Below, piece by piece: positions 1 to 11,972 of a DNA stretch of 11,972 nt. Position 1 is the first letter of the stretch; the number at the start of each line of letters is the position of its first letter. The DNA comes from a virus (Duplodnaviria > Heunggongvirae > Uroviricota > Caudoviricetes): the IMG/VR virus record IMGVR_UViG_2713896773_000004, positions 1 to 11,972 of that record. One strand, given 5' to 3'. The position numbers and the translations under genes are program-made. A model generated the notes under the pieces. The model was not told where the DNA came from. It searched no databases and saw only the letters and a list, made by a program, of their open reading frames with translations.

Positions 1-29
1 TTTGAATAACTGAATAAGGTAATAAAACA

Positions 30-494
30 ATGACTCAACATATTGGCGTGAAGCTCATCAATGCTTACCCGATGACCCGTCTGGCATATAACGACTTTCG
101 TGGTTGGGAGTTACCAAGTGACGAAAACGGAAGTGATGAAGGTTATCTCGTCGAGTATCTGGATGGCGGAAAGCCAAACACCGATCGCTTCAACGGGTAT
201 GTGAGCTGGAGTCCGAAAGATGTGTTCGACAAAGCCTACCGACCAGTGGCGGGGCTTAGCTTCGGACTGGCTGTCGAAGCCCTGAAATCAGGCAAGCGTG
301 TCACCCGCGCAGGCTGGAACGGCAAGGGCCTGTGGCTTGAGCTGGTCCAGCAGTCGCCATCTGTGGACCTGCCGTACATTCGTTTAATTTATCCTGTGCC
401 GGGCAATGGTGCTATGCCATACCCAAATGGCGCTCGCGTGCCTTGGGCACCAAGCCAAACCGACGTCTTGGCTGATGACTGGCAAATTCTCTAA
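30..494 (+). CDS. Two-domain phage accessory protein; C-terminal DUF2829-like (Tad2-like) domain, N-terminal uncharacterised domain
   Basis: 154-aa ORF with ATG at 30 downstream of AAGG. C-terminal half has the motif series FGLAVEALKSGKRVTRAGWNGKG ... VPWAPSQTDVLADDWQIL, which I recognise from memory as the DUF2829 pattern (FGEAL.ALK.GK.V.R.GWNGK ... PW..SQ.D.LA.DW). N-terminal half (GYLVEYLDG ... YVSWSPKDVFDKAY) looks like a separate domain. No search was run. Confidence 0.55.
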   Translation: MTQHIGVKLINAYPMTRLAYNDFRGWELPSDENGSDEGYLVEYLDGGKPNTDRFNGYVSWSPKDVFDKAYRPVAGLSFGLAVEALKSGKRVTRAGWNGKGLWLELVQQSPSVDLPYIRLIYPVPGNGAMPYPNGARVPWAPSQTDVLADDWQIL

Positions 495-517
495 ACCAGT
501 TGCTTGGGGGGTGGTCT

Positions 518-727
518 ATGCGAGATGACGATTTTCACCATGTGGGCGATGGCCGCGGTAAGCGCCGAGTGTTCGTTAACGGCAACGAGGTCAAGCGCTG
601 CGTATGGGCGGATGTTAAGCGAGGAATAGCATGCTTCTACCCATACCCCATTCGGGTCCATAAGCGAAAGCGCGATGAAGTCTATACCCGCAAACTGCGC
701 GGCGTAATAACCGTCGAATTTATCTAA
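518..727 (+). CDS. Small basic hypothetical phage protein (about 69 aa)
   Basis: ORF in the track as 500..727 (TTG start). I prefer the in-frame ATG at 518, which follows a G-rich Shine-Dalgarno-like run GGGGGGTGG (505-513). Lys/Arg-rich (KRKRDEVYTRKLRG). No family recognised. Followed directly by a terminator. Confidence 0.45.
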   Translation: MRDDDFHHVGDGRGKRRVFVNGNEVKRCVWADVKRGIACFYPYPIRVHKRKRDEVYTRKLRGVITVEFI

Positions 728-728
728 C

Positions 729-753
729 AGGCTGCCTTCGGGTGGCCTTTTTT
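729..753 (+). terminator. Rho-independent terminator (UUCG tetraloop hairpin plus T6)
   Basis: AGGCUGCC-UUCG-GGUGGCCU forms an 8-bp stem with two G-U wobbles, followed by TTTTTT, immediately after the stop at 725-727. Confidence 0.6.
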
Positions 754-834
754 ATGCCTGCCGCTGAGCGGATGCGACGCGGTGACCGGGTCGGATGACC
801 TATTACCAATGGCCGGAAGGCTGGAGCAAAAACA

Positions 835-1587
835 ATGAAACTGAAACTTGATGCTAACGGAAATGTGGTCGTTGAAAACGGTATGCCTGTGTACATCCAT
901 GATGATGGCAAAGAAATCCCGTTCGACGCAGCCGCAGCGATGACCAAAATCACCTCCCTGAATGGTGAAGCTAAAACTCACCGTGAAGCGAAGGAGGCGG
1001 CGGAAGCCAGTCTCGCGAAATTCTCTGGCATCACCGATCCGACCAAGGCGCTCGAAGCCCTGGAGATGATGACCAAAATCGACCAGAAAAAACTGATCGA
1101 CGCTGGCGCTGTTGACCAGGTTAAGGCTGAGATTACCAAGGTATTCCAGCAGCAGCTGGATGAAGCGAACGGCAAGACCAAACAGCTCGAAAGCCAGCTC
1201 TACGACGAGATGATCGGCGGGCGCTTCGGTGGCTCCAAATTCATTTCAGAGAAGATGGCGATCCCGGCTGAGTTCGTGCGTTCCCACTTCGGTCAGAACT
1301 TCAAAATCGAAGACGGCAAAGTCGTGGCGTACGACGGGCAGGGCAACAAGGTGTTCTCTCGCACCAAGCCAGGCGAGTTAGCCAGCTTTGATGAGGCCCT
1401 GGAGTCTCTGGTCGAGTCGCATCCGCAGAAAGATTACATCCTCAAAGCGTCCGGTAACAGCGGCGGCGGTTCTCACCAGTCGCAGCACCAGGCCGGGCAA
1501 AAAACCATGAAACGCGATGCGTTTGATTCCCTGGATAACGCTGGCAAGCAAGCAGCGCTGAAAGACGGCGTCAGCATCGTCGATTAA
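835..1587 (+). CDS. Putative capsid scaffolding protein
   Basis: 250-aa ORF with AGGCTGGAG upstream. Charged, Ala/Lys/Glu-rich, predicted helical/coiled-coil composition, Gly/Ser/Gln-rich linker near the C-terminus. Sits immediately upstream of the major capsid gene with a 17-nt gap, the usual scaffold position. Confidence 0.55.
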   Translation: MKLKLDANGNVVVENGMPVYIHDDGKEIPFDAAAAMTKITSLNGEAKTHREAKEAAEASLAKFSGITDPTKALEALEMMTKIDQKKLIDAGAVDQVKAEITKVFQQQLDEANGKTKQLESQLYDEMIGGRFGGSKFISEKMAIPAEFVRSHFGQNFKIEDGKVVAYDGQGNKVFSRTKPGELASFDEALESLVESHPQKDYILKASGNSGGGSHQSQHQAGQKTMKRDAFDSLDNAGKQAALKDGVSIVD

Positions 1588-1604
1588 ATCGAAAGGAGCC
1601 ATAA

Positions 1605-2744
1605 ATGGCAGGCAATACCCTTACTGGTCTGATCCCGACCATCTATACCGCGCTGTACGTAGTGTCCCGCGAGCAAACTGGTTTTATTCCTGCGGTGGCG
1701 CGTGACGCGAAAGCGGATGCTGCTGCAAAAGACCAGACCGTACGTGCGCCAGTCGCACCTGCAGCCACCACTGAAGATATTGTCCCTGGACCTTCAGCGC
1801 CTAATTCTGGCGACCAGACCATCGGTGGTGTGGATGTCAAAATCACCAAATCCAAAATGGCCCCGGTGAAATGGAATGGTGAAGAGCAATTGGCTCTGGG
1901 CCCGGCTGGTACCTACAACACCATCCTGGCTGACCAGTTCAAGCAGGCTTTCCGTGCGCTGGCGAACGAAGTGGATGCGGATCTCGCTGCGCTGTACCTC
2001 AACTCCTCCCGCGCTGTTGGCGCGCCAAAGAATACCCCGTTCAGCATCAAAGACGATCTGACTGATGCTGCGTTGGCGCGTCAAATCCTGACCGATAACG
2101 GTGCGCCGACTACTGATTTGCGTATGGTGCTGGGTGGCGAAGCGATGGCATCCATCCGTGGTAAACAGGCTGTACTCTTCAAAGCGAACGAAGCGGGAAC
2201 CGACCAACTGCTGCGTGAAGGTGTTATCGGTCGCATCATGGGCTTCAACCTCCACGAATCCTTCAGCATCAAGCGTACCGCGAAAAGCGCTGCTGCTGGC
2301 TATAAGGTCAATGGCGCGAAGAAAGAGGGCGATATCATCATCGCTATCTCTGCTGGCACCGGCGGTATTGCTGCAGGTACTGCGGTGAAGTTCGCCGGTG
2401 ATGACAATCAGTATCTGGTCGTTGCGGCTACGTCTTCCACTATCACTATTAGCGCGCCGGGCCTCCGTCAGGATCTGGCAGACCAGGCTGATGTCACTGT
2501 GTTGAGCGAATTTGTACCGAACATGGCGTTTGACCGCGGGGCATTCCTGCTGGCCAGCCGTACCCCGGCGATGCCTGAAGGTGGCGATACTGCTGATGAC
2601 GTCATGAATGTGACCGACCCGGTATCTGGCATCACCTTCCAGGTGGCGCTGTACCGCCAGTACCGTCAGGTGCGTTATGAAGTGGGCCTGGCATGGGGTG
2701 TGGCTGCTGTGGCGCCACGTCATTCCGCCATCATCATGGGTTAA
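1605..2744 (+). CDS. Major capsid (coat) protein, P22 coat-like by motif resemblance
   Basis: 379-aa ORF with strong RBS AAGGAG about 8 nt upstream. Position after the scaffold gene and before connector genes. Segments GDIIIAISAGTGGIAAGTAVKFAGDDNQYLVV and the C-terminal GLAWGVAAVAPRHSAI resemble motifs I recall from P22 gp5-type coat proteins. Followed by a hairpin terminator/attenuator, typical of highly expressed capsid genes. Confidence 0.65.
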   Translation: MAGNTLTGLIPTIYTALYVVSREQTGFIPAVARDAKADAAAKDQTVRAPVAPAATTEDIVPGPSAPNSGDQTIGGVDVKITKSKMAPVKWNGEEQLALGPAGTYNTILADQFKQAFRALANEVDADLAALYLNSSRAVGAPKNTPFSIKDDLTDAALARQILTDNGAPTTDLRMVLGGEAMASIRGKQAVLFKANEAGTDQLLREGVIGRIMGFNLHESFSIKRTAKSAAAGYKVNGAKKEGDIIIAISAGTGGIAAGTAVKFAGDDNQYLVVAATSSTITISAPGLRQDLADQADVTVLSEFVPNMAFDRGAFLLASRTPAMPEGGDTADDVMNVTDPVSGITFQVALYRQYRQVRYEVGLAWGVAAVAPRHSAIIMG

Positions 2745-2748
2745 CCCA

Positions 2749-2770
2749 GGGGGCTTCGGCCCCTTTGTTT
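2749..2770 (+). terminator. Rho-independent terminator/attenuator after the capsid gene
   Basis: GGGGC-UUCG-GCCCC hairpin (2750-2763) followed by TTTGTTTT. Located between the capsid stop (2744) and the next RBS (AGGAGG, 2773-2778). Confidence 0.55.
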
Positions 2771-2782
2771 TCAGGAGGCCCA

Positions 2783-2983
2783 ATGGCCGGATTAACCAAA
2801 GAGCAGAGCGCGCAGCGTGAGGCTGAAAAGCTTGCCGCGCAGAACGGCGCTGAACAAACAGGTATTGAGCTGGTGGCTATGATGCGAGATACCCCGGAGT
2901 TCCCCGGCGGTCCGCTGAGCGCTGAGGTTCACCCTGACGAAGTCGATAACTGGCTGGCGCTGGACTGGCGACTGGAGGAGTAA
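2783..2983 (+). CDS. Small hypothetical head-module protein (66 aa)
   Basis: ORF track gives 2693..2983, but that start overlaps the capsid gene and its terminator. The in-frame ATG at 2783 has a consensus AGGAGG RBS 5 nt upstream. Acidic protein, no family recognised. Confidence 0.55.
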   Translation: MAGLTKEQSAQREAEKLAAQNGAEQTGIELVAMMRDTPEFPGGPLSAEVHPDEVDNWLALDWRLEE

Positions 2984-2985
2984 CT

Positions 2986-3297
2986 GTGAGCGATAAAGAT
3001 ATTGAGCAGGAAATTCAGGCCAAAGGCTTGAACGCGCCGCGCGTTACGCTGGGCGAGTTGAAGGCGAATATTAAGCATGCCGAGATCGTGAAGCACGTAT
3101 CCGTCACCGGGCAGGTGCTTCGCTGGGCGGTCATCACCACTCAAAACGGATTCGCAGTAACAGGGAATCCGTCGTGCTCAGTTTCCTCCGCTAACGACAA
3201 CGCTGAAATTGGCGAGAAAATTGCTATTGAGAACGCCGAAAGCGAGTTGTGGGCGTTGATGGGATATGCGTTAAAGCAGAAGCTTTTCGAAGCCTGA
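2986..3297 (+). CDS. Gp49-like small phage protein (PF13876-like pattern), function unknown
   Basis: 103-aa ORF with GTG start at 2986 preceded by GGAGGAG. Pattern TLGELKANI ... VTGQVLRWAVITTQNGFAVTGNPSCSVSSANDNAEIGEKIAIENAESELWALMGYALK matches my memory of the gp49/gp66-type small phage protein family. Not verified by search. Confidence 0.45.
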   Translation: MSDKDIEQEIQAKGLNAPRVTLGELKANIKHAEIVKHVSVTGQVLRWAVITTQNGFAVTGNPSCSVSSANDNAEIGEKIAIENAESELWALMGYALKQKLFEA

Positions 3298-3310
3298 GAG
3301 GAGCTCTGAG

Positions 3311-3793
3311 ATGATTAATGCCGATCCCCATTCGTCTGACTTCAACAGCTATGCCAGCGTTGGTGATCTGCGCGCGTTCGCTGCGGGGCGCGGATACACC
3401 ATCCCTGCTGAAGATGGCGAATGCAGCCAGATGCTGATGCAGGCAATGGACTTTCTGGAAGGGAAGGCCTGGCGCGGTCAGCGTTCCAGCGCATCACAGC
3501 CTCTATCCTGGCCGCGTTCCGGCGTGCGCTTCGATGGTGTTGACCTGTCGAATGATGCGATTCCACAGCGCCTGATTGATGCTCAATGTCGCCTGGCCAT
3601 CGAATCGCAGGAGATTGACCTCACCCCGTCGGTCGCTGGCGGTGGGGCGGTTACGATGGAGCGCGTCGAGGGTGCGGTAACAGTCCAGTATGAGCCGGGA
3701 ACGAATAAAGCTTCTCCGTCATTCCCATGGTTCTATTCCGCACTGCGCGGGCTTGTAGTGGGCGGCAACCAGGTCCGGGTCGAAAGGGGGTAG
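3311..3793 (+). CDS. Putative head-tail connector / adaptor protein
   Basis: 160-aa ORF with GAGGAG RBS. First of four tightly packed small genes between the capsid and major tail genes, the canonical siphovirus connector/neck block. Assignment is by position and size, not by recognised homology. Confidence 0.4.
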   Translation: MINADPHSSDFNSYASVGDLRAFAAGRGYTIPAEDGECSQMLMQAMDFLEGKAWRGQRSSASQPLSWPRSGVRFDGVDLSNDAIPQRLIDAQCRLAIESQEIDLTPSVAGGGAVTMERVEGAVTVQYEPGTNKASPSFPWFYSALRGLVVGGNQVRVERG

Positions 3794-3794
3794 C

Positions 3795-4148
3795 ATGGCA
3801 ATCGACTATCGCCGCATGCGCGCGACCGCGACCCGACTGCTGACCGAGAACGGGAAGGCATATCAGCTTACCCGCGGCGGCGGCACCATCCGTGACCAGT
3901 TCGGCAAAGAGGTCACCACCCCGGCCATTACCGCGACCGTAACCGGTGTTATCACCGAATACTCCTCCCGCGAAATCGACGGTTCCCTGATCGCCACCGG
4001 CGACAAGAAGCTGGCGGCCACTTTCGAGACGGAAGTGCGCATCGATGACCGCATCGAAATCGACAGCAAAAAGTGGCGCGTGGTACAGCCGAATCCGGTT
4101 AAGCCTGCCGATGTGCTGATCTCCTACAACATCCAGCTGAGGGCGTAA
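3795..4148 (+). CDS. Putative head-tail joining / head closure protein
   Basis: 117-aa ORF starting 2 nt after the previous stop (translational coupling), GGGGG upstream. Position and size fit a head-tail joining protein. Confidence 0.4.
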   Translation: MAIDYRRMRATATRLLTENGKAYQLTRGGGTIRDQFGKEVTTPAITATVTGVITEYSSREIDGSLIATGDKKLAATFETEVRIDDRIEIDSKKWRVVQPNPVKPADVLISYNIQLRA

Positions 4149-4150
4149 CT

Positions 4151-4750
4151 ATGGTGGGGTCTGTTAATCAGCCGTTCCTGGCTGCCATTCAGCTGTTCGT
4201 GGATGGCTCGAAGCAGGAGATGGACGAGGTGGTGCGCCGGACGGGTATTAAAATCCTCGCTCAACTGGTTGAGATGTCCCCGGTGGGCCAACCGGATATC
4301 TGGCAGGTCAACCAGACCGCGACGGCGTACAACACTGCGGTGCGGGAGCATAACGCGACCCTGCGTGATGACCCGGCTAATCTGACCAAATCAGGACGAC
4401 TTAAGCGCGGCCTGCGCGTCAACGACTCGATGGACATCAAAAAGCCTGAGGGCTATGTCGGCGGGCGGTTTAAAAACAACTGGTATGTGGGCTTTGACAG
4501 CCAGCCAAGCCAATCCAACGACACCCCCGACGCTTCCGGCCAGGGTTCCAACTCCCGCGGTCTGGCAGTGCTCGAGGTGTTCCGGGTAGGGCAGGTCAGC
4601 TCGATTTTCTTCACCAATAATCTGCCATATGCGGCAGCACTGGAGAACGGGCATTCCGGCCAGGCACCCGGCGGCATGGTGGGCATCACTGCGCTGGATG
4701 CCGCGCAGTTGTTCCGTGAGGCAATGAGCGAGGTGCGCAATGGCCAGTGA
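4151..4750 (+). CDS. Putative tail completion / neck protein (HK97 gp10-like position)
   Basis: 199-aa ORF starting 3 nt after the previous stop. Third gene of the connector block. Family assignment by synteny only. Confidence 0.4.
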   Translation: MVGSVNQPFLAAIQLFVDGSKQEMDEVVRRTGIKILAQLVEMSPVGQPDIWQVNQTATAYNTAVREHNATLRDDPANLTKSGRLKRGLRVNDSMDIKKPEGYVGGRFKNNWYVGFDSQPSQSNDTPDASGQGSNSRGLAVLEVFRVGQVSSIFFTNNLPYAAALENGHSGQAPGGMVGITALDAAQLFREAMSEVRNGQ

Positions 4751-5189
4751 CCAGTCAATGCGAATTGCTGAACTACTGGAGAGCCGCATTGCGGTTATCT
4801 GCTTATCGCTTGGGCTGCCCGTAGCCTGGCCGAACATACCGTTTACTCCCCCGGATAGCTCACCATACGGGCGTGTTTATGTTCTGCCGGCACAGACGGT
4901 GGGGCAAGACCTGGAAGGTCAATTGCGAACCTATCAGGGCATCCTGCAGCTCAACATCATTGCGCCAGCAGGCAGCGGCGTGACGCAGGCCAGAGGGCTG
5001 GCTAAATCTGTCGCTGATGCATTTCCTGAAGGGCTTGCGCTGGTGGATGGTGACCTGACTGTTTATATCAATGGGCCGCCGCAGGTGAGACAACCCATCC
5101 AGGACCGGCCAACCTCGGCGTCCAACGGGTCCAGTGGCTCCATAACCTACACCATTCCCGTCAGCATGCAGTACCGCGCTGACTACTGA
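4740..5189 (+). CDS. Putative tail terminator protein (gpU-like position)
   Basis: 149-aa ORF whose ATG (4740) overlaps the previous gene by 11 nt (ATGGCCAGTGA). Last small gene before the major tail gene, the position of the tail terminator in lambda-like clusters. Followed by a terminator. Confidence 0.45.
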   Translation: MASDQSMRIAELLESRIAVICLSLGLPVAWPNIPFTPPDSSPYGRVYVLPAQTVGQDLEGQLRTYQGILQLNIIAPAGSGVTQARGLAKSVADAFPEGLALVDGDLTVYINGPPQVRQPIQDRPTSASNGSSGSITYTIPVSMQYRADY

Positions 5190-5212
5190 CCCGCCAGATG
5201 GCGGGTTTTTTA
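5190..5212 (+). terminator. Rho-independent terminator
   Basis: CCCGCC-AGAU-GGCGGG perfect 6-bp hairpin (5190-5205) followed by TTTTTTATT, immediately after the stop at 5187-5189. Confidence 0.65.
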
Positions 5213-5235
5213 TTACCTAAATTCAGGAGAGTGCT

Positions 5236-6168
5236 ATGGCATTCGCAATCCCTAACGGCTCGCGTGTTAACGTGGCCAAGGCCTATCAGGCTCCCATCAC
5301 CTTTACCGCTGCCTCTAACGCTACTGAATGCGAACTGACTGTTGCATCTGCCGCTGGCATCCTGGCGGGCGACGTAGTGCAGGTGAGCTCCGGCTGGCTA
5401 AAACTCGATAATATGGTGCTGCGCGTTAAATCCGTAGCCGGTACCAAAATCGTGCTGGATTCGTTCGATACCTCTGACACCACCAAATTCCCGGCAGGCA
5501 CTGGCGCGGGCACGCTGCGTAAAATCGACACGTGGATCACGATGCCGCAGGTGATGACCCTCTCCACAGAGGGTGGTGACCAGCAGACCATCAGCGTGCA
5601 GTTCCTTGAAGACGATAAGGCCCGTACCATCCCGACCTTCAAAAACGCCGTGGTGCAGGTCTACACCTTCGCGCACGATCCGCTGCTGGCAATTTACAAG
5701 CGTCTGAGTGAACTTGACGAATCCAGCGACACCACTGCTGTGTGGTTCCATAACCCGCGCGGCAAAGCGGACCGTTATTACTCTGCCAAAGTGTCTTTCC
5801 AGAAGGTGCCTAAGACCGAAATCAACGCCGTGGAAAGCAACGAAGCGCGCATGAACTTCGAATCGGATATGCAGATTTACCCGATCGCCGATTCATCCGT
5901 TACGCCGCTGGCGTTCCTGACTGATCTGCCATCAACCAAAGCAGTTAGTGTTGGAGATGCGCTCGATTTAGCCGTCGTTATGCAAGGCGGCTCAGCCCCT
6001 TACACCTACGTGTGGAAGAAAGGAAGCTCCGCAATTCCGGGCAAAACCGCCTCGACGTTCAACATTTCGTCTGTCTCATCCGGTGATGCTGGCGTTTATA
6101 CCTGCGAAGTCACTGACGCCGCAGGCAAGACCCTAACGTCGGCGGCATGCACCGTTACTGTCAGCTAA
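5236..6168 (+). CDS. Major tail (tube) protein with C-terminal Ig-like domain
   Basis: 310-aa ORF with RBS CAGGAGAG. Sits between the tail terminator and the G/GT chaperone, as lambda V does. C-terminal roughly 80 aa (AVSVGDALDLAVVMQGGSAPYTYVWKKGSS ... SGDAGVYTCEVTDAAGKTLTSAACTVTVS) has the Y-x-C and W hallmarks of an Ig-like domain of the kind appended to many phage tail tube and capsid proteins. Confidence 0.7.
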   Translation: MAFAIPNGSRVNVAKAYQAPITFTAASNATECELTVASAAGILAGDVVQVSSGWLKLDNMVLRVKSVAGTKIVLDSFDTSDTTKFPAGTGAGTLRKIDTWITMPQVMTLSTEGGDQQTISVQFLEDDKARTIPTFKNAVVQVYTFAHDPLLAIYKRLSELDESSDTTAVWFHNPRGKADRYYSAKVSFQKVPKTEINAVESNEARMNFESDMQIYPIADSSVTPLAFLTDLPSTKAVSVGDALDLAVVMQGGSAPYTYVWKKGSSAIPGKTASTFNISSVSSGDAGVYTCEVTDAAGKTLTSAACTVTVS

Positions 6169-6175
6169 CCAATCA

Positions 6176-6200
6176 GGCCCGGTTCGCCGGGCTTTATTTC
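6176..6200 (+). terminator. Rho-independent terminator after the major tail gene
   Basis: GCCCGG-UUCG-CCGGGC hairpin (6177-6192) followed by TTTATTTC. Confidence 0.6.
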
Positions 6201-6384
6201 GCAATGAGTACCGCTGGCGAATTTTCTGTATTCGCATTACCCATCTTTTCAAACTGCGCCTTCACACGCGCTCTCTAACCAAGAACCTTTCAGAAAGCGT
6301 TCCTGAGAACTGCCGTTAGTGCCGGTGGGCCTCTTGGGGCGGCTTTTCTGTGTGAACAGGTTCGCTTTTTAAAAGGTACACACC

Positions 6385-6915
6385 ATGAATCACCCAACCG
6401 TCTCAGTGAATGGGGTCTCCGTCCGCGTTGATGACGAAGGCCGGTACAGTCTTAACGATCTTCATGCGGCAGCGGTAGCTAACGGAGAGGCTACTGAGTC
6501 ACAAAGGCCCAGCGTCTTCCTGCGTAGCGCGCAGATCAAACGCTTCGTTAAAGCGCTAAAATCCAAAGCACTAAAAAGTGCTTCGGAACAAAATCAACCA
6601 CTTAAGGTTATAAAAGGCGGTGATCAAAGTGGTGCATGGGGCATTGAACTTCTGGCAATCCGCTATGCCGCCTGGATAAAGCCAGAGTTTGAGATTGAAG
6701 TGTACGAAGTATTTAGAACAGTGGTGCGTCTTGGTATCAGTGCCATGTCCCGCCTGAACAAAATCGACCACATCATCAACACTGAAACCAAGGCAATTAG
6801 CCAGTGTGCCAGCCAAATGGCCAAGTGGGGTGTTGGTGGTCGCAAGCAGCTATTACATGCAGCCCGGGATCGCGTCGCCGACGAAGTCCAGATGTATCTG
6901 CCCGGCATTAACTAA
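6385..6915 (+). CDS. KilA-N domain protein (moron)
   Basis: 176-aa ORF with AAAAGG upstream. N-terminus VSVNGVSVRVDDEGRYSLNDLHAAA ... SVFLRSAQIKRFVKAL ... GAWGIELLAIRYAAWIKPEFEIEVYEVF matches the KilA-N pattern I recall (V..G..IRV...GRYSLNDLH.A ... F.R ... W..P.F). C-terminal roughly 70 aa unrecognised. Lies in a 786-bp gap between the major tail gene and chaperone G, with terminators on both sides. Confidence 0.6.
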   Translation: MNHPTVSVNGVSVRVDDEGRYSLNDLHAAAVANGEATESQRPSVFLRSAQIKRFVKALKSKALKSASEQNQPLKVIKGGDQSGAWGIELLAIRYAAWIKPEFEIEVYEVFRTVVRLGISAMSRLNKIDHIINTETKAISQCASQMAKWGVGGRKQLLHAARDRVADEVQMYLPGIN

Positions 6916-6916
6916 T

Positions 6917-6941
6917 ACCCGCTACGGCGGGTTTCGTTTTT
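6917..6941 (+). terminator. Rho-independent terminator after the KilA-N gene
   Basis: ACCCGC-UACG-GCGGGU hairpin (6917-6932) followed by TTCGTTTTTCT. Stop codon at 6913-6915. Confidence 0.6.
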
Positions 6942-6954
6942 CTAAGGAACCGAA

Positions 6955-7293
6955 ATGACCAAATTCTCCCTGATCCCGAACCCGACCTTCTCCGTTACCG
7001 CCAGCATCCCGCGCGCTGGTGCTGAAGACGGCAAGCTGACCTTTACCTTCCGCCACAAGACACTGGAAGAGCTGCGCTCTATGGATGAAAAGCTGCAAAA
7101 GTCGGCTGAAGGTAAAAAGGCTGCTATCGAGCCGCAGGCCGACTACCTCATGGAAATTGTCGAGGGGTGGGCACTACCTGACGAGTTCACCCGCGACAAC
7201 GTTATTGTCCTTCTTCAGAACTACCCGCGCGCGTTCGACAGCATCGGTCTGGCCTACACCAAAGAGCTGATGGGTATCCGCGAAAAAAACTAA
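6955..7293 (+). CDS. Tail assembly chaperone (lambda gpG-like)
   Basis: 112-aa ORF with AAGGAA RBS, immediately upstream of the tape measure gene. Ends with a slippery heptamer A_AAA_AAC immediately 5' of its stop codon, and the -1 frame continues open to the tape measure start. Confidence 0.65.
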   Translation: MTKFSLIPNPTFSVTASIPRAGAEDGKLTFTFRHKTLEELRSMDEKLQKSAEGKKAAIEPQADYLMEIVEGWALPDEFTRDNVIVLLQNYPRAFDSIGLAYTKELMGIREKN

Positions 7294-7598
7294 GGCAGGT
7301 CGCCGCAGCGTTGTACACGCCGGGACCGACTCTCGCGGAGTTAGCCGCTTTTGGTTTGACGCCTGAGGACGTGGAGGAAGAGGTGGGTATCCTGCCCTCT
7401 GTGTGGAAGTCTTTCACCATCTTCTCTGCCCTGGCAACCCAGTGGCGCGTCGGCGCGAGCGGGGCGACCGGCCTTGATTACAACGTTCTCCCCTGGATGT
7501 TCGAGTTACACGGGGTTGAGGATGCGGCGGCCTGCATGGCTGACCTTCAAATTATGGAAAGCGAGGCTCTCAAGGTAATGCATAAGGAGACGAAATAA
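6955..7598 (+). CDS. Tail assembly chaperone frameshift fusion (gpGT-like), made by -1 programmed ribosomal frameshift at 7284-7290
   Basis: 0-frame codons GAA AAA AAC TAA place the heptamer A_AAA_AAC at 7284-7290. After a -1 slip, reading continues CTA AGG CAG ... (LRQVAAALYTPGPTLAEL...) to the TAA at 7596-7598. This is the same frame as track ORF 7311..7598, which has no credible independent start (TTG, no RBS). Predicted fusion is about 214 aa. Confidence 0.6.
7284..7290 (+). other. -1 programmed ribosomal frameshift slippery heptamer A_AAA_AAC
   Basis: AAAAAAC in X_XXY_YYZ register relative to the G reading frame, directly upstream of the G stop codon. Confidence 0.6.
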
Positions 7599-10500
7599 TG
7601 ACAGACCAGATCGCCTCGATTACTTTGCGGGCCGATGTTTCTGACCTGAAAACAGCCAGCAACGAACTGGATAAACTCGGCCAGGCGGCGGCCGGTGCTG
7701 TAGATAAAGCAGATGATCTGAATAGCGTGTTTCGCGCTGGCGCTGAATCTGCGAAGCAAGGCAGCGAAGGACTCAAGGAGCAGCAGAACGCGCTCAAAGG
7801 GCTGCTGGAGAATATCGACCCGGTTACCAAGGCCTTAAACCGCCTGGATGAGCAGCAAGAATCGCTGCGGAAATTCCAGGCCAAAGGTTTCCTGGATACC
7901 GATACCTTTCAGGCATACAACAAAATCCTGGATGACACCCGCCTCAAGCTGACCGACACCGGAGAAGCCGCGGCGCGCGCTCAGGCTGAATTAGCCGCTA
8001 CCCAGGCGGCAGAAAAGCAGTCCGCAGCGTTAAAGAACCTTCTTGGATCCATCGACCCGACTATCCGCGCGTTCAATTCGTTGGATGAACAGCACGCACA
8101 GCTGGTGGAACATTTCGAAGCTGGGCGCATTAACGGTGCTCAGTTCGAGCACTTCAACACAATCCTTAACCAGACGCGTGAGCGCCTCTCTGGTGTCGCT
8201 GACGTACTACCAGAGGCGCTATCCCGGCAGGAAGCTGCTGCCCGGCGCGCTGGAATCTCCGTTGGTCAGTACAGCGCAGCAATGCGCACGCTTCCGGCGC
8301 AATTCACCGATATCGCCACGCAGCTGGCTGGCGGTCAGTCGCCGTTCCTGATTCTGCTGCAACAGGGCGGGCAGATTAAAGACCAGTTCGGCTCGGTTCA
8401 GGGGGCGCTGTCCGGCGTCGGCGAATACATCCGCAGCATGGCTGGGATGATTAACCCTACCACAATCGCACTTGGTGGGCTGATTGGCACGATCGGCCTG
8501 CTGGCTGCCGCAGCGTATAACTCCTCGGAGCAATTTGAGCAGGTGGCACGCTCTGTCATCATGATGGGTGGGGCTGGCTTCTCCTCAATGCAGCAGCTCA
8601 ACCAGGCCGCTGAGGAAGTGGCTGGCAAGACGAATACATCGATTAGCTCCACCGTCGATACGCTGGTTACGTTGAACGATACTGGCAAATATACCGCAAG
8701 CCAGATGAAGCAGGTCGCAACGACCATCACCCTCATGGGTAAGGCCGGAAATGATACCAAAGCGGCAATAAGCGACTTCGGAAAGATTGTCAGCGATCCG
8801 GTTAAAGGGCTTGCCAGCCTCAATGAACAATATGGTTTCGTTGATGAAGCCATGATCAAGCACATTATCCAGCTACGTAAGCAGAAGGGTGAGCAGGCGG
8901 CTGTTACCGAAGCTATTGAGCTGTTTGCAGGCGTCATGGCAAAGCGCGCAGAGGAGACCAACAAAGCGACCGATAATATCGGTCAAACGTGGGAAAACCT
9001 TAAAAAGAGCGCTTCTGACACCTTTGGCGATATAGGTATTACCGTGCGCGCATGGGGAAACCAGATCATTGATATTTTCGAACTGGTTAAATCCTCGATC
9101 AAAGACTTGTTCCTCAATATCACCTCTCTGGACGCCAAGTTCACCAGCACCATCGCTGGCTGGGCAGACAAAATCCCGGGTGGCGGTGCGCTGGCTAATT
9201 TCCTCGGCATGGACGTTGAGGCAATGAAAAAGGCTGGAGCGGAGGCGGACAAAGAGATTGAGGCGAACAAAAAACGCTATAACGAGCTTTGGAAGCGCGT
9301 CACTGCGCCTAACGCACAGGCAAACTATGAGGCTGAAGCGCGAGGGTCTAACGTAAAAGGTGATGGAGGAACAAGTCGAGAATCAAGAGACGCAGTCTCG
9401 AAGCTTGCACAAGACTCAGACAAAAAGACCAAAGAGGCAAAAGCCACGCTGGATGCTGGCGATCGCACCCTGGAGAACTACCGCGCCCAGGCCAGAACGT
9501 TAACTGAAACGCTCGAGACCCTCCGACAAACAGGCGAAACCCACGCTAAAAACACCGAGTTCAGTAAACAGCAATCTCGATTTGCTGAATTGGATGAGGC
9601 AGCCAAAACCCGCGCGTTGACTGCTCAGGAAAAATCTTTACTGTCGAGCCGTGAGGCGATTCTGAACGCCGCCAAGGTGGTTGATCAGAAGAACAAGGAA
9701 GTAGAGGCGCAGCAGAAGATTAACGGCCTGGCGCAGCAGGCGAATAAATACGTCACGCAGATGTCGGAAAAAACCGATGCATTGCGTGATAGTGTAGGCC
9801 TCAGCAGTCGGCAAACGCAGCGCATGATGGAAGAGGCACAGCTTCGCCAGGGCTGGCTCAACGGTGGCGGTAAGCTTGATGATGCTGGCTATGAGAAAGA
9901 ACTGGCAGCCCTCAGAAATTATTACGCTGAAGAGGATAAGCTGCGCGGCGATTGGAAATCAGGTGCTATCAGCGGCTGGAATGAGTATCTGGACGCTGCC
10001 ACCAATACCTACGATGCCGTGAAGAATGTTGCCAGCTCCACGCTAACAGGCCTGAGCGACATGCTGACCGAGCTCATGACGACCGGCAAAGCATCGGTCA
10101 AAGAGTTCGGCAAATCCATGCTCAAGATGATCCTGGATGTGACGAACCGCCTCATGGTGGCCTACGCGGTGCAAGCTGCTATGGGATGGATCAGTGGGAG
10201 CGCGGGAGGTGGCGCTACACCCGGCGGTGCTTATGCCAATGCGGCCGCTGGTGTAACGTTCAATGCTAAAGGCGGCGTATACGAATCACCCGGCCTCAGT
10301 AAATATGTGAATGGCGTCTACGATTCTCCTCAATATTTCACATTCCAGGGCGCGTCGAAGTTTGCCAAAGGCGGGGTATTCGCTGAGGCAGGGGCTGAGG
10401 CGATCATGCCGCTGACGCGGGATTCTGCTGGTCGGCTTGGTGTCAGGGCGCAAGGCGGGGGCGGTGCGCAGCCTCAGGTCAATATTGATATCTACGTTGA

Positions 10501-10651
10501 TAACAAGGGCAACACATCATCAAATACGTCCGGAGACGGCAGTGCTGCGGCGCGTGCCTTAGGCAAGGAAATTGAAGCAAAGGTTACGGAGATCCTCGTG
10601 AGGGCCGCTCGGAGTGATGGTTTCCTGGGCAAAACGTTCCAACCCAAATAA
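7598..10651 (+). CDS. H: Tail tape measure protein (lambda gpH homologue)
   Basis: 1017-aa ORF whose ATG overlaps the upstream stop (TAATG), RBS AAGGAGA. Segment [53 protein letters not shown] is near-identical to the lambda gpH segment I recall ([49 protein letters not shown]). Also has hydrophobic Gly-rich segments and a Gly/Ala-rich C-terminus typical of tape measure proteins. Confidence 0.9.
   Translation: [1017 protein letters not shown]
7790..8188 (+). repeat. Intragenic tandem duplication in the tape measure N-terminal region (two diverged copies of about 54 aa, period 79 aa)
   Basis: Residues 65-118 ([54 protein letters not shown]) and 144-197 ([54 protein letters not shown]) align without gaps at about 44% identity. 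Nucleotide copies are diverged, sharing short strings such as ATCGACCC. Confidence 0.7.
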
Positions 10652-10693
10652 GAAACTGCTGTGATTCTGAGATGGGAATATCATCTGCACCTG

Positions 10694-10722
10694 GTTACAG
10701 CGACACATCCCTTGGTTATCAT
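10694..10722 (+). promoter_or_regulatory. Candidate sigma70 promoter for the first island gene
   Basis: GTTACA (10694-10699), 17-bp spacer, TATCAT (10717-10722). Predicted start about 10729, upstream of RBS AAGGGG (10742-10747). Pattern match only. Confidence 0.3.
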
Positions 10723-10753
10723 GAGCTAAACCATGCTAATCAAGGGGATGATA

Positions 10754-11128
10754 ATGAAGGCGCTCAAAATTGGCCTTGCAGGGATTGTTGTTATTTACTT
10801 GCTCATCAATGCCAGTAAATCACAAGAGATAAAAAGCGAAGATATACCTGCGTTTGCTAAAAGTGAGTCAAATGTATGGATAGCTAATACACTGGGCCAG
10901 CCGGGCGCAGACGTCATCAAAAGCTCTACCTACTACCTTAAGCGTGAGATTCCAGAAGAGGATATTGTTTATGGCTATCTTTGTGGAACCATAACAACTG
11001 GCGAAAGATTCTTTACTGAGGTCTCGATCAATAAGCGCAAGCACACGTCTGGCATTTTCAAAAATATGATATTTGATAAACGCAATGCAAAGACGTTTAA
11101 TCAGATCTGGAACACTGAGTGTAAGTAA
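10754..11128 (+). CDS. Hypothetical secreted or membrane-anchored protein with N-terminal signal peptide (cargo island gene A)
   Basis: Track ORF 10733..11128. I prefer ATG 10754 (or 10748), 6 nt after AAGGGG. N-terminus MKALKIGLAGIVVIYLLINA-SKSQ has a basic n-region, hydrophobic core and Ala at the putative cleavage site, with no lipobox Cys. Mature part has two Cys. Local GC is about 40%. No family recognised. Confidence 0.55.
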   Translation: MKALKIGLAGIVVIYLLINASKSQEIKSEDIPAFAKSESNVWIANTLGQPGADVIKSSTYYLKREIPEEDIVYGYLCGTITTGERFFTEVSINKRKHTSGIFKNMIFDKRNAKTFNQIWNTECK

Positions 11129-11149
11129 CCATCAAGATCACCCAACACA

Positions 11150-11175
11150 GCCTCGCATACGCGGGGCTTTTTTAT
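11150..11175 (+). terminator. Rho-independent terminator after island gene A
   Basis: GCCUCGC-AUAC-GCGGGGC hairpin (one G-U wobble) at 11150-11167, followed by TTTTTTAT. Confidence 0.6.
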
Positions 11176-11203
11176 ATCTGTAGCCGAGAGGCAGGAGAAC
11201 GTT

Positions 11204-11461
11204 ATGGAAATGACTGTAGGATTCCCTGAAATGGGTTCGCGATTTGAATCTGTAAGCTTCGATCCAGATTTAGAAATTAAAATGATAAAGACTGTCAGAA
11301 CCAAAATTACAGTTTGCAAGCTTGAGCAAATCAATGCGCCTCATGAACTGGTGTTTATCTATCAGGAGGATTTCAATCCAGGCAGCTCTTTTGCCGAAGT
11401 CGAAGCACGCGCCAAAGAATATGCCAGTAAGGCAATTGCCGGATTGAAAACCCCGGCTTAA
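11204..11461 (+). CDS. Hypothetical small acidic protein (cargo island gene B, 85 aa)
   Basis: ORF with AGGAGA RBS 6 nt upstream of ATG 11204. AT-rich codon usage unlike the structural genes. Its stop codon lies in the loop of a hairpin that can terminate the convergent minus-strand gene. No family recognised. Confidence 0.5.
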   Translation: MEMTVGFPEMGSRFESVSFDPDLEIKMIKTVRTKITVCKLEQINAPHELVFIYQEDFNPGSSFAEVEARAKEYASKAIAGLKTPA

Positions 11462-11467
11462 CCGGGG
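11447..11467 (-). terminator. Candidate rho-independent terminator for minus-strand gene C
   Basis: Plus-strand CCCCGG-CTTAA-CCGGGG (11451-11467). On the minus strand the hairpin is followed by UUUU (complement of AAAA 11447-11450), 8 nt downstream of the gene C stop. The U-tract is short, so strength is uncertain. Confidence 0.4.
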
Positions 11468-11474
11468 CAAAGCA

Positions 11475-11705
11475 TTATTTGATGCGATGGTAGATGTTAT
11501 CAGCCCTGGCGTACAATTTGGATACCGCCTCGGCACGACCTTGCTCTTGCATCGTCATTTTTGATGTATCTCCACCGTAGGCCTTCGTCATATACTCAGT
11601 AACGCGCTTGCGAAAAGCTCCAGCATCACCTGATTCGACAGTGGCAACAGCTAATAAAAACGCTAAGGCTTCATCCTGCTGGTCTTCTTTGTTAAAGCTC
11701 ATCAT
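11475..11705 (-). CDS. Hypothetical small protein encoded antisense to the late operon (cargo island gene C, 76 aa)
   Basis: Minus-strand ORF starting ATGATG (complement of 11700-11705) with AGGAG 3 nt upstream (complement of CTCCT 11709-11713). Protein MMSFNKEDQQDEALAFLLAVATVESGDAG..., no family recognised. It is the only credible minus-strand gene in the window. Confidence 0.55.
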   Translation of the reverse strand: MMSFNKEDQQDEALAFLLAVATVESGDAGAFRKRVTEYMTKAYGGDTSKMTMQEQGRAEAVSKLYARADNIYHRIK

Positions 11706-11753
11706 AAACTCCTGTTATACCGAGGCCATCAGCCGCACCGTCGGCAATTAATG

Positions 11754-11774
11754 CGCCAGTGCCCACCACTGGCG
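11754..11774. repeat. Perfect 8-bp inverted repeat with 5-bp spacer upstream of gene C
   Basis: CGCCAGTG-CCCAC-CACTGGCG, located about 50-70 bp upstream of the gene C start codon on the minus strand. Candidate operator or RNA hairpin. Confidence 0.4.
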
Positions 11775-11834
11775 GGCTGAATCCACAACATAACCAGGTA
11801 TTTTGATTTGTAACATCCTGATATTCAGACAGTA

Positions 11835-11857
11835 GCCACCTTCGGGTGGCTTTTTTT
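11835..11857 (+). terminator. Rho-independent terminator (perfect UUCG tetraloop hairpin plus T7) immediately upstream of gene M
   Basis: GCCACC-UUCG-GGUGGC (11835-11850) followed by TTTTTTT (11851-11857). The RBS GGAG and ATG of the next gene follow within 12 nt. Confidence 0.7.
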
Positions 11858-11868
11858 ATGGAGCAAAT

Positions 11869-11972
11869 ATGGCAGTTGAAACATACAGCTGGCGCTCGCA
11901 GCTCGGTGCTGGGGCGATTGAATATAGTCAAACGGTGCGCGCTGCGCAGTTCGGTGATGGCTATGAGCAGGT
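11869..11972 (+). CDS. M: Minor tail protein M (lambda gpM-like), 5' partial, continues beyond the window
   Basis: ATG at 11869 with GGAG 5 nt upstream. Translation MAVETYSWRSQLGAGAIEYSQTVRAAQFGDGYEQ matches the N-terminal pattern of lambda M as I recall it (MKTFRWKVKPGMDVASVPSVRKVRFGDGYSQ), including the FGDGY motif. Truncated by the window end. Confidence 0.7.
   Translation, partial: MAVETYSWRSQLGAGAIEYSQTVRAAQFGDGYEQ

Follow-up and report, generated by a model that had tools for sequence, protein, structure and literature searches.

A pseudoknotted leader RNA, predicted to bury the ribosome-binding site of a KilA-N cargo gene, recurs in late operons of temperate enterobacterial phages

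The window analyzed here is a stretch of 11,972 nucleotides (nt), positions 1-11,972 of the IMG/VR record IMGVR_UViG_2713896773_000004, and it covers the head-tail portion of the late operon in an HK639-like siphovirus prophage. Between the genes for the tail tube and chaperone G lies an insert of 786 bp (6169-6954), which carries a single open reading frame (ORF; 6385-6915, plus strand) for a KilA-N protein of 176 amino acids. Our analysis reveals that this gene is accessory cargo and that it is preceded by a conserved leader of about 130 nt (6256-6384), made of a small hairpin, a long rod, and a pseudoknot, and as far as we can tell undescribed so far. The leader is predicted to sequester the Shine-Dalgarno sequence (SD), its pairing is supported by covariation, and it is shared by unrelated ORFs. 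On balance, we think it probable that the insert is a late-operon accessory cassette that is transcribed by read-through and whose translation is gated by the leader. The KilA-N gene alone is ordinary, a member of a known large family in a known variable slot; the cassette design and the leader matter more. A first-pass annotation of this DNA had delimited the insert correctly and had not remarked on the leader.

Results

The KilA-N homologues each come with 170 to 215 nt of upstream noncoding sequence that can be aligned across unrelated phage backbones. A block with a fixed order of elements was seen upstream in 47 genomic loci, which belong to Enterobacterales and to a few Gammaproteobacteria outside this group: a terminator, a GCGC-N7/8-GCGC hairpin about 20 nt further on, an A/U-rich linker, and about 100 nt of structured sequence with the SD at its end. 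In the window, where all these elements are on the plus strand, the leader opens with the small hairpin (GCGC-N8-GCGC, 6256-6271; ΔG −6, z-score −3.9), whose stem changes are compensated (GUGC:GCAC, GCUC:GAGC). The rod-shaped hairpin follows at 6285-6377, with a minimum free energy of −39.1 kcal/mol and a z-score of −2.5. At its base, helix P0 pairs an anti-SD (ACCUUU, 6285-6290) with the SD (AAAGGU, 6372-6377), and above it stand P1a (6292-6299 with 6363-6370), P1b (6300-6305 with 6357-6362), P2 (6306-6315 with 6340-6349), and P3 (6321-6323 with 6328-6330). The pseudoknot joins the strand CCAAGA (6279-6284), directly 5′ of the rod, to UCUUGG (6332-6337) on the 3′ side of the apical loop. Among unpaired bases, conservation is highest in the GG that comes after this pseudoknot strand (6337-6338) and in the G.GA within an asymmetric internal loop, GUGUGAA (6350-6356), where G6352, G6354, and A6355 are conserved in at least 86% of the sequences. 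Since the apex must reach the base of the rod, the modeled structure suggests that the GUGUGAA loop is probably a hinge allowing the pseudoknot to form. A k-turn reading of the same loop did not fit in register.

When about 45 diverged leaders were folded individually, they returned the same SD-burying rod; in every case the SD was in the 3′ arm, 8 to 13 nt before the ATG, and the anti-SD covaried with it (CCUUU:AAAGG, CCUA:UAGG, CCUUA:UAAGG). A covariance model seeded from 20 KilA-N leaders also found leaders outside its seed, those before the unrelated cargo genes in HK639, ABWA45, and VREC0761, at 64 to 75 bits, with 72 to 75 bits for leaders of the HK639_13 type, and every match in oriented loci was on the gene strand. 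In the alignment, 87.8% of the cells pair, compared with 71.4% in shuffles and 33 to 48% when the partners are slid by one to three columns, and double-sided changes are seen in 34 of the 35 pairs. The corresponding values for an independent IMG/VR set were 84.6% versus 75.7%, with double-sided changes in 28 of 35 pairs. RNAalifold on a plain MAFFT alignment recovered just 18 pairs. Many of the pairs are G-U on the gene strand, which points to the RNA of that strand as the functional form.

The pseudoknot is absent from the covariance model. Across 48 distinct sequence combinations its pairing is kept while its sequence varies, giving 36 types, including CGAGAG:CUCUCG, CACAGAA:UUCUGUG, CACCGAA:UUCGGUG, CAUCGAA:UUCGAUG, CGCAGAG:CUCUGCG, and CCCGAG:CUCGGG. 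Strands matched with their own partners form helices of 6.5 bp on average, against 4.55 bp when the partners are swapped (Mann-Whitney p about 1e-14 to 1e-16). An alternative helix of CCUGAGA with UCUUGGGG, considered as a switch, was dropped because the 5′-flank pseudoknot explains the covariation better; locus L034 fits the flank and not the internal site. A 24-codon upstream ORF (6204-6278) was also set aside, as other leaders do not preserve it and it lacks an SD.

The predicted P0 pairing places the window leader among those that sequester a ribosome-binding site. Specifically, the SD core of the window is predicted to be unpaired with a probability of 0.002. Over 126 leaders the median of this value is 0.008, compared with 0.36 for 400 control ORFs taken from those loci (p 2e-30). 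Accessibility over positions −14 to −5 showed no difference; that measure is too diluted, and the SD core was used instead. Searching the whole window with the 4227 models of Rfam 15, including C4 antisense RNA, IsrK, riboswitches, and ribozymes, gave nothing at E ≤ 1 save a chance fluoride hit elsewhere, and on 6160-6400 at E ≤ 10 there were just sub-threshold chance hits of 13 to 19 bits. No prior description of the leader was found in the literature searched.

The leader is present in more than 200 loci, before genes for KilA-N, Rha, AntA, P22_AR_N, ANT, T5orf172, HNH, and tail-tip-like proteins. A pattern scan of IMG/VR gave hits in at least 120 stretches, and all 80 of the loci returned contain a full-length match. 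Among 149 ORFs that start at the ATG of the model, 116 encode KilA-N proteins; the remainder comprise HNH_3 (6), Phage_Tail_Tip-like (5), AntA (4), P22_AR_N with ORF11CD3 (3), T5orf172/MUG113 (2), and ANT/KilAC (1) proteins, six proteins in five clusters that have no Pfam match, and six ORFs too short for clustering. Rha-family genes with the leader occur in phi80, in HK639 (a second copy), and in Stx2a phages. Tandem cassettes are common (loci L042, L118, L131, L096, L049, L038, and L019, phi80, and a Stx2a phage). By blastn, the leader was found in 140 phage records, including those of phi80, HK620, epsilon34, CUS-3, Sf101, SPN3UB, and at least 73 Stx2a-converting phages. Among the matches listed, none of 60 records has an RNA annotated at the leader, the site lying under a coding sequence or under no feature.

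A close comparison for the window cassette comes from phi80 rha, the Rha and Ant genes of Stx2a phages, and ST104 orf45. These likewise have a terminator, a leader of the same family (130 bits in phi80, 101 to 123 bits in the Stx2a phage), and an ORF of about 170 to 190 codons with an N-terminal DNA-binding domain. In contrast to the window gene, the phi80 and Stx2a genes carry Phage_pRha or P22_AR_N in place of KilA-N at the N terminus, and they lie after Rz and not inside the tail cluster. In the literature searched, nothing relevant was found on experiments with sb54 or orf45. In the Stx2a phage LC645410 (L217), two leader cassettes lie inside the lysis cluster (1599-3656), one with P22_AR_N and ORF11CD3 between lysozyme and Rz and one with Rha and ORF11CD3 after Rz, and the record has no gene annotation there. 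In phi80 (JX871397, L216), the rha coding sequence is annotated at 2588-3142; it begins 36 nt upstream of the ATG that the leader model predicts (L216:2624), and it overlaps with the leader's 3′ arm. The downstream ATG, whose SD is in the conserved position, is probably the real start of rha. A note in the phi80 record describes Rha as an inhibitor of DNA synthesis in IHF− hosts. At least one leader-linked gene thus has a product that is harmful to its phage in certain host backgrounds, and this makes tight control plausible.

The first-pass annotation had proposed an N-terminal KilA-N domain in the window protein, and a hidden Markov model search bore this out. PF04383 matches residues 9 to 113 (6409-6723) with an E-value of 3.8e-15 and 56.1 bits, compared with a cut-off of 23.8, and all 30 of 30 aligned homologues match as well. 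The protein also matches phrog_129 over residues 1 to 174 (E 4.6e-58). It has 506 homologues at E ≤ 1e-5; among the matches listed, nearly all are from Enterobacterales, have about 176 amino acids, and are named just "KilA-N domain-containing protein." An AlphaFold2 model was built from an alignment of 66 sequences including a KilA-N family at 30% identity, and it reached a predicted local distance difference test score (pLDDT) of 79, compared with 59 from close homologues alone. The N-terminal domain is mostly above 84, save for a loop at about residues 61 to 70, and its model shows the APSES-like alpha+beta fold of the KilA-N family. The top fold match in the PDB, a weak one, is the APSES DNA-binding domain of Mbp1 (1bm8; E 0.068, probability 0.85), and among viral models, 29 KilA-N models at E ≤ 1e-3 ranked top.

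For the remainder of the protein (residues 114-176; 6724-6912), which had been put forward as unrecognised and possibly new, the outcome was divided. Pfam does leave these 63 amino acids without assignment, and the PDB fold search gave no informative match for them. The model predicts a helical hairpin from residues 100 to 146 and 152 to 171 (pLDDT of the C-terminal helices 60-73), with the conserved motifs LN(K/R)xDHxIxxE, SxCA, and WGxGGRK. PF10549 (ORF11CD3, cut-off 25 bits) matched neither the window protein nor 29 close homologues, even at E ≤ 5. In a profile comparison by hhalign, the protein aligned to the KilA-N family at 30% identity with a probability of 99.5%, reaching residue 148, and the members of that family score 16 to 18 bits on PF10549 over the very stretch aligned. 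Furthermore, a BLASTP alignment to the Rha protein of a Stx2a phage extends to the last residue (E 4e-4); residues 123 to 175 of that protein match PF10549 with an E-value of 6.9e-24, and this ORF11CD3 tail aligns with the C terminus of the window protein. A comparison by hhalign with the ORF11CD3 segment of Rha alone was weak (E 0.0017, probability just 15%). From these three comparisons the C terminus is probably a divergent copy of ORF11CD3 and not a new domain. ORF11CD3, whose function is uncharacterised, is a known module that has been shuffled among the C termini of Rha, P22_AR_N, and KilA-N proteins. The predicted two-module protein belongs to the antirepressor-class network of KilA-N, Rha, AntA, P22_AR_N, ANT, and T5orf172 proteins, a domain-shuffling network reportedly described by Iyer, Koonin and Aravind in 2002. 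By analogy with the neighbors that share its leader, it would most likely be a DNA- or repressor-binding regulator.

A comparison with relatives settled that the KilA-N gene is nonstructural accessory cargo, as had been suspected. The slot is flanked on the left by the gene for the major tail (tube) protein (5236-6168, plus strand; PF08813 with E 9.6e-45 and a C-terminal Ig domain; phrog_584) and on the right by that for chaperone G (6955-7293, plus strand; PF08748, E 2.5e-27). The nearest phage is the Escherichia phage HK639 (NC_016158), with flanks at 86% DNA identity, and 12 complete Escherichia coli genomes match the flanks at 88 to 97%. In the prophage of E. coli ET729 the slot is empty, and tube and G are just 65 bp apart, in line with the view that the two genes are normally adjacent; the remaining 11 prophages have a Phage_Tail_Tip-like gene in the slot, with or without an extra ORF. 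HK639 has an unrelated gene for 226 amino acids there (HK639_13), with terminators on both sides. Since relatives have either an empty slot or a different cargo, the KilA-N gene cannot be required for tail assembly. HK639_13 shares with the window gene the backbone, the slot, the flanking terminators, and a leader of the same type, which scores 74.5 bits on a model built without it; the cargo itself, with a Phage_Tail_Tip-like segment, differs. The exact window protein occurs in 113 blocks of an assembly collection, and 24 of 24 contigs inspected place its gene in the same slot. At 83% DNA identity, the same gene was found in unrelated phage backbones.

The alternative cargo of the slot encodes a protein of 226 to 290 amino acids with a segment like a tail-tip fiber domain (J C-terminal, PF09327), and the same leader RNA lies upstream. 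Examples are at 7077-7757 in HK639 (L001), 6574-7365 in L005, 6929-7801 in L004, and 4201-4929 in phi80 (L216). These products might be receptor-blocking decoys or spare receptor-binding modules.

The gene had been described as independently punctuated, and for the terminators this holds. T1 (6175-6199, plus strand; hairpin 6175-6194 followed by UUUAUUU; ΔG −14 kcal/mol, z-score −3.0) is kept in ET729, HK639, ABWA45, and VREC0761. It is a backbone element, since the empty-slot relative carries it too, and the left junction in the alignment is immediately 3′ of its U-run. T2 (6917-6941, plus strand; hairpin 6917-6932 followed by UUUCGUUUUU; ΔG −11.8, z-score −2.8) is common to every filled slot whatever the cargo, and the empty slot is without it. 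In the HK639 record, terminators are annotated at both homologous positions. A weak hairpin in the window (CGAAU-UUUCUGU-AUUCG, 6218-6234, plus strand) aligns with the GC-hairpin and T-run that form the own upstream terminator of other cassettes.

A promoter to go with this punctuation was not found. A consensus scan revealed no sigma-70-like promoter in 6169-6384 and none conserved in position across 134 leaders, where any 8/12 match occurred in just 32 of 134 and was scattered. An A/T-rich box 3′ of the GCGC hairpin, TATAAT in some loci, was considered as a candidate −10 element and then discarded, because it varies in length and sequence, no properly spaced −35 accompanies it, and a transcript starting there would lack the covarying pseudoknot strand.

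The location of the gene outside the early regions had been considered unusual for KilA-N. On the contrary, this subfamily is normally found in late operons, after Rz or within tail clusters. In ST64B and in the P22-like phages ST104, SE1, and UPF_BP1, homologues at 79 to 84% identity have the Rz lysis genes on one side and the packaging genes on the other. A Providencia phage carries a homologue at 61% identity between tape measure and M, and Salmonella phage 29485 carries one at 95% in its tail region. Distant KilA-N genes with 40% identity in the N-domain (SfV orf44, mEp460 gp48) are in the nin region, 19 nt 3′ of rusA. The upstream neighbors of 131 related cassettes are late genes, including Rz (48), tail tube (13), DUF6246 (12), lysozyme, tail terminator, K, and tape measure, and the downstream neighbors include G, Nu1, and DUF2560. 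A same-strand ORF lies upstream in 131 of 146 loci, so that the cassettes are nearly always co-oriented with adjacent late genes. Furthermore, a terminator lies within 90 nt upstream of the leader in 114 of 131 (87%), compared with 27 of 655 random windows.

Discussion

We propose that the cassette is a horizontally exchanged unit in a recombination-prone slot, in which the leader of about 130 nt and its ORF lie between two terminators. It would have no promoter of its own and would be transcribed with the late operon by Q-modified, antiterminated polymerase reading through T1 and T2, which would leave the downstream tail genes unaffected. Further strong intrinsic-terminator hairpins follow several structural genes of the window (729-748, 2748-2765, 5188-5207, and 11149-11168) and are likewise annotated in HK639; such hairpins throughout the late operon imply that its expression as a whole depends on processive antitermination. 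In the late transcript, the rod would pair the anti-SD with the SD, and the pseudoknot between the 5′ flank and the apical loop would lock it. Because the leader buries the SD, translation of the KilA-N protein would be very low, or conditional on opening or cutting of the leader. Candidate openers are RNase III, which could cleave the 21-bp lower rod, or another host or phage factor.

Several points weigh against this explanation. With a rod of −39 kcal/mol, translation would seemingly be blocked wholly, so that an activating step must be assumed. The P1b helix of the window contains two U-U mismatches. A consensus scan may miss promoters that are weak, activator-dependent, or not of the sigma-70 type. 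The covariation counts come from alignments fitted to the model and thereby favor the structure; the single-sequence folds and the pseudoknot test are independent of the model. Besides, no experimentally studied homologue of the KilA-N subfamily was found in the literature searched.

The proposed logic is comparable to that by which IS10 and T4 shield genes from read-through transcripts. In the fold-back inhibition of IS10, a hairpin pairs the ribosome-binding site of the transposase gene in such transcripts. The free-standing homing-endonuclease genes of T4 offer the phage counterpart, since hairpins that sequester the ribosome-binding site and terminators surround the mobile genes I-TevI, mobE, and segB in phage operons (PMC2988022). 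All these cases have an accessory or mobile gene in an essential operon, a hairpin over the ribosome-binding site, and associated terminators. In contrast, the T4 and IS10 leaders are simple hairpins with an internal late promoter, so that promoter-proximal transcripts escape, whereas the consensus scan found no conserved promoter-like site inside the KilA-N leader. Furthermore, the leader described here spans about 130 nt and contains an internal loop that is conserved and a pseudoknot that covaries, and a single RNA family is used by ORFs of many families.

Many temperate enterobacterial phages have, in their late operons, antirepressor-class accessory genes that are preceded by one covariation-supported, pseudoknotted RNA family. 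Should the leader gate translation, this would explain how potentially harmful regulatory genes are tolerated inside essential operons, and it would represent a new control point for prophage cross-induction in pathogens. It would also give a handle on the Rha and Roi-type phenotypes, in which the product blocks phage growth in IHF-deficient hosts and which, to our knowledge, have long been without explanation.

A rival explanation, which we regard as unlikely, is that of a classical moron. The gene would then be expressed in the lysogen through a promoter of its own, with T1 and T2 as insulation, and would benefit the host or prophage, for example by superinfection exclusion or abortive infection, while the leader merely tunes translation. 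The presence of the gene in some relatives and not in others, and a terminator of its own in T2, are what a moron would have, and the Tad2-like gene at 30-494 is other defense-related cargo in the same window. A precedent exists in BstA of BTP1, a prophage abortive-infection protein, which shows that prophage proteins with a KilA-N-like N terminus can serve in defense (PMC8585504). However, BstA has 307 residues and a distinct C-terminal domain, compared with 176 residues in the window protein. Its gene also differs in being located by the prophage repressor locus. PADLOC-DB 2.0.0 gave no defense family at E ≤ 0.1 for the KilA-N protein, nor for HK639_13 or the ORFs 3′ of the tape measure. The promoter that defines the morons of HK97- and HK022-type phages was not found in the KilA-N cassette by the consensus scan, and the co-orientation with late genes and the frequent position directly 3′ of a terminator fit read-through better.

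A selfish, homing-type cassette appears more doubtful still. Leader and ORF would form a mobile unit that passes between co-infecting phages, either by recombination or by gene conversion with the help of a nuclease. The KilA-N protein would be related to site-specific nucleases and have become domesticated or degenerate, and the leader would serve mainly to keep down the cost to the carrier. In favor of this, the leader also precedes HNH_3 and T5orf172/MUG113 (GIY-YIG-like) ORFs, cassettes occur in tandem, the gene is shared between unrelated backbones at high identity, and the T4 homing-endonuclease genes have analogous hairpins and terminators. Iyer, Koonin and Aravind are also said to have proposed, in 2002, that KilA-N/APSES domains share a fold with the nucleic-acid-binding modules of LAGLIDADG nucleases. 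However, nuclease motifs were not detected in the 176-residue protein, the leader-linked ORFs are mostly of DNA-binding or antirepressor types and not nucleases, and the junctions show no target-site signature besides the shared terminators.

It is also conceivable, at a similarly low probability, that the leader, rather than being a passive clamp, represents a regulatory RNA of a class not described before, serves as a switch or an addressing element, and lets co-resident prophages control each other's antirepressor-class genes. The internal loop and the pseudoknot would then sense a factor of host or phage, such as a protein, RNase III, a small RNA, or a metabolite, and the hypervariable, covarying pseudoknot would give each cassette its own specificity, as the c4 loops do in P1/P7 immI. 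Co-resident prophages, including Shiga-toxin phages, could in this way cross-control antirepressor-class genes through RNA. There is precedent for RNA control of antirepressor genes in the c4 antisense RNA of P1/P7 immI, where short complementary elements with compensatory variation set the specificity, and in the sar RNA of P22. Those systems share with the KilA-N leader a control at the RNA level (predicted in our case), antirepressor-class genes, and a temperate phage as carrier. They differ in that the leader matches no Rfam family at E ≤ 10, C4 included, and that pairing in the window is all in cis, with no separate small RNA gene seen.

A function of the inverted repeat as DNA, be it in recombination in the manner of an integron attC site or in protein binding as an operator, is very improbable. 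The cassette-like arrays and a structure-conserved, sequence-variable imperfect palindrome between ORFs would suit such an element, and the small GCGC palindrome could equally be an operator. However, the frequent G-U pairs of the gene strand would be A-C mismatches on the opposite strand, the SD is always in the 3′ arm, 8 to 13 nt before the ATG, and covaries with the anti-SD, a pseudoknot is meaningful for a single strand only, and no integrase gene was seen next to the surveyed cassettes. Lastly, the KilA-N protein is almost certainly not a lineage-specific tail-assembly or virion component: its gene's position between those for tube and chaperone is the sole point for this, whereas relatives with 96 to 97% identical flanks lack the gene or carry other cargo, homologues adjoin lysis genes in podoviruses, and the domain is a DNA-binding fold.

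Other genes of the window

The gene order of the window is Tad2-like, a DUF6651 gene, P22-type coat, connectors, tail terminator, tail tube, the insert, G, T extension, and tape measure. The T extension of G (7311-7598, plus strand; DUF1799/PF08809) is reached by a −1 frameshift at the slippery A_AAA_AAC (7284-7290), as read from the frames of the sequence, and the tape measure gene follows at 7598-10651 on the plus strand. The Tad2-like ORF (30-494, plus strand), which lies among the head genes, encodes 154 amino acids with a Thoeris anti-defense Tad2-like domain (PF11195, E 4.6e-20). Since it is missing from two of six related contigs examined (L014 and L015), it is probably another accessory, anti-defense gene. 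A Phage_gp49_66-family ORF (2986-3297, plus strand) and an ORF of 75 codons (500-727, plus strand) are further small variable genes of the head region, as some related prophages have them and others do not.

A second variable slot occupies 10652-11972, 3′ of the tape measure, with a G+C fraction of 0.41 to 0.43, compared with about 0.55 to 0.59 in the flanks. It holds an ORF for 131 amino acids with a hydrophobic N terminus (10733-11128), with a promoter-like site at 10694-10722 and the terminator at 11149-11168, an ORF for 85 amino acids (11204-11461), and a convergent ORF for 76 amino acids on the minus strand (11475-11705) with its own promoter-like site. The genes of relatives at this place are very different, among them those for a zinc-ribbon protein, an Arc/Mnt-like pair together with a Bro-N antirepressor, and, in HK639, a YafO toxin.

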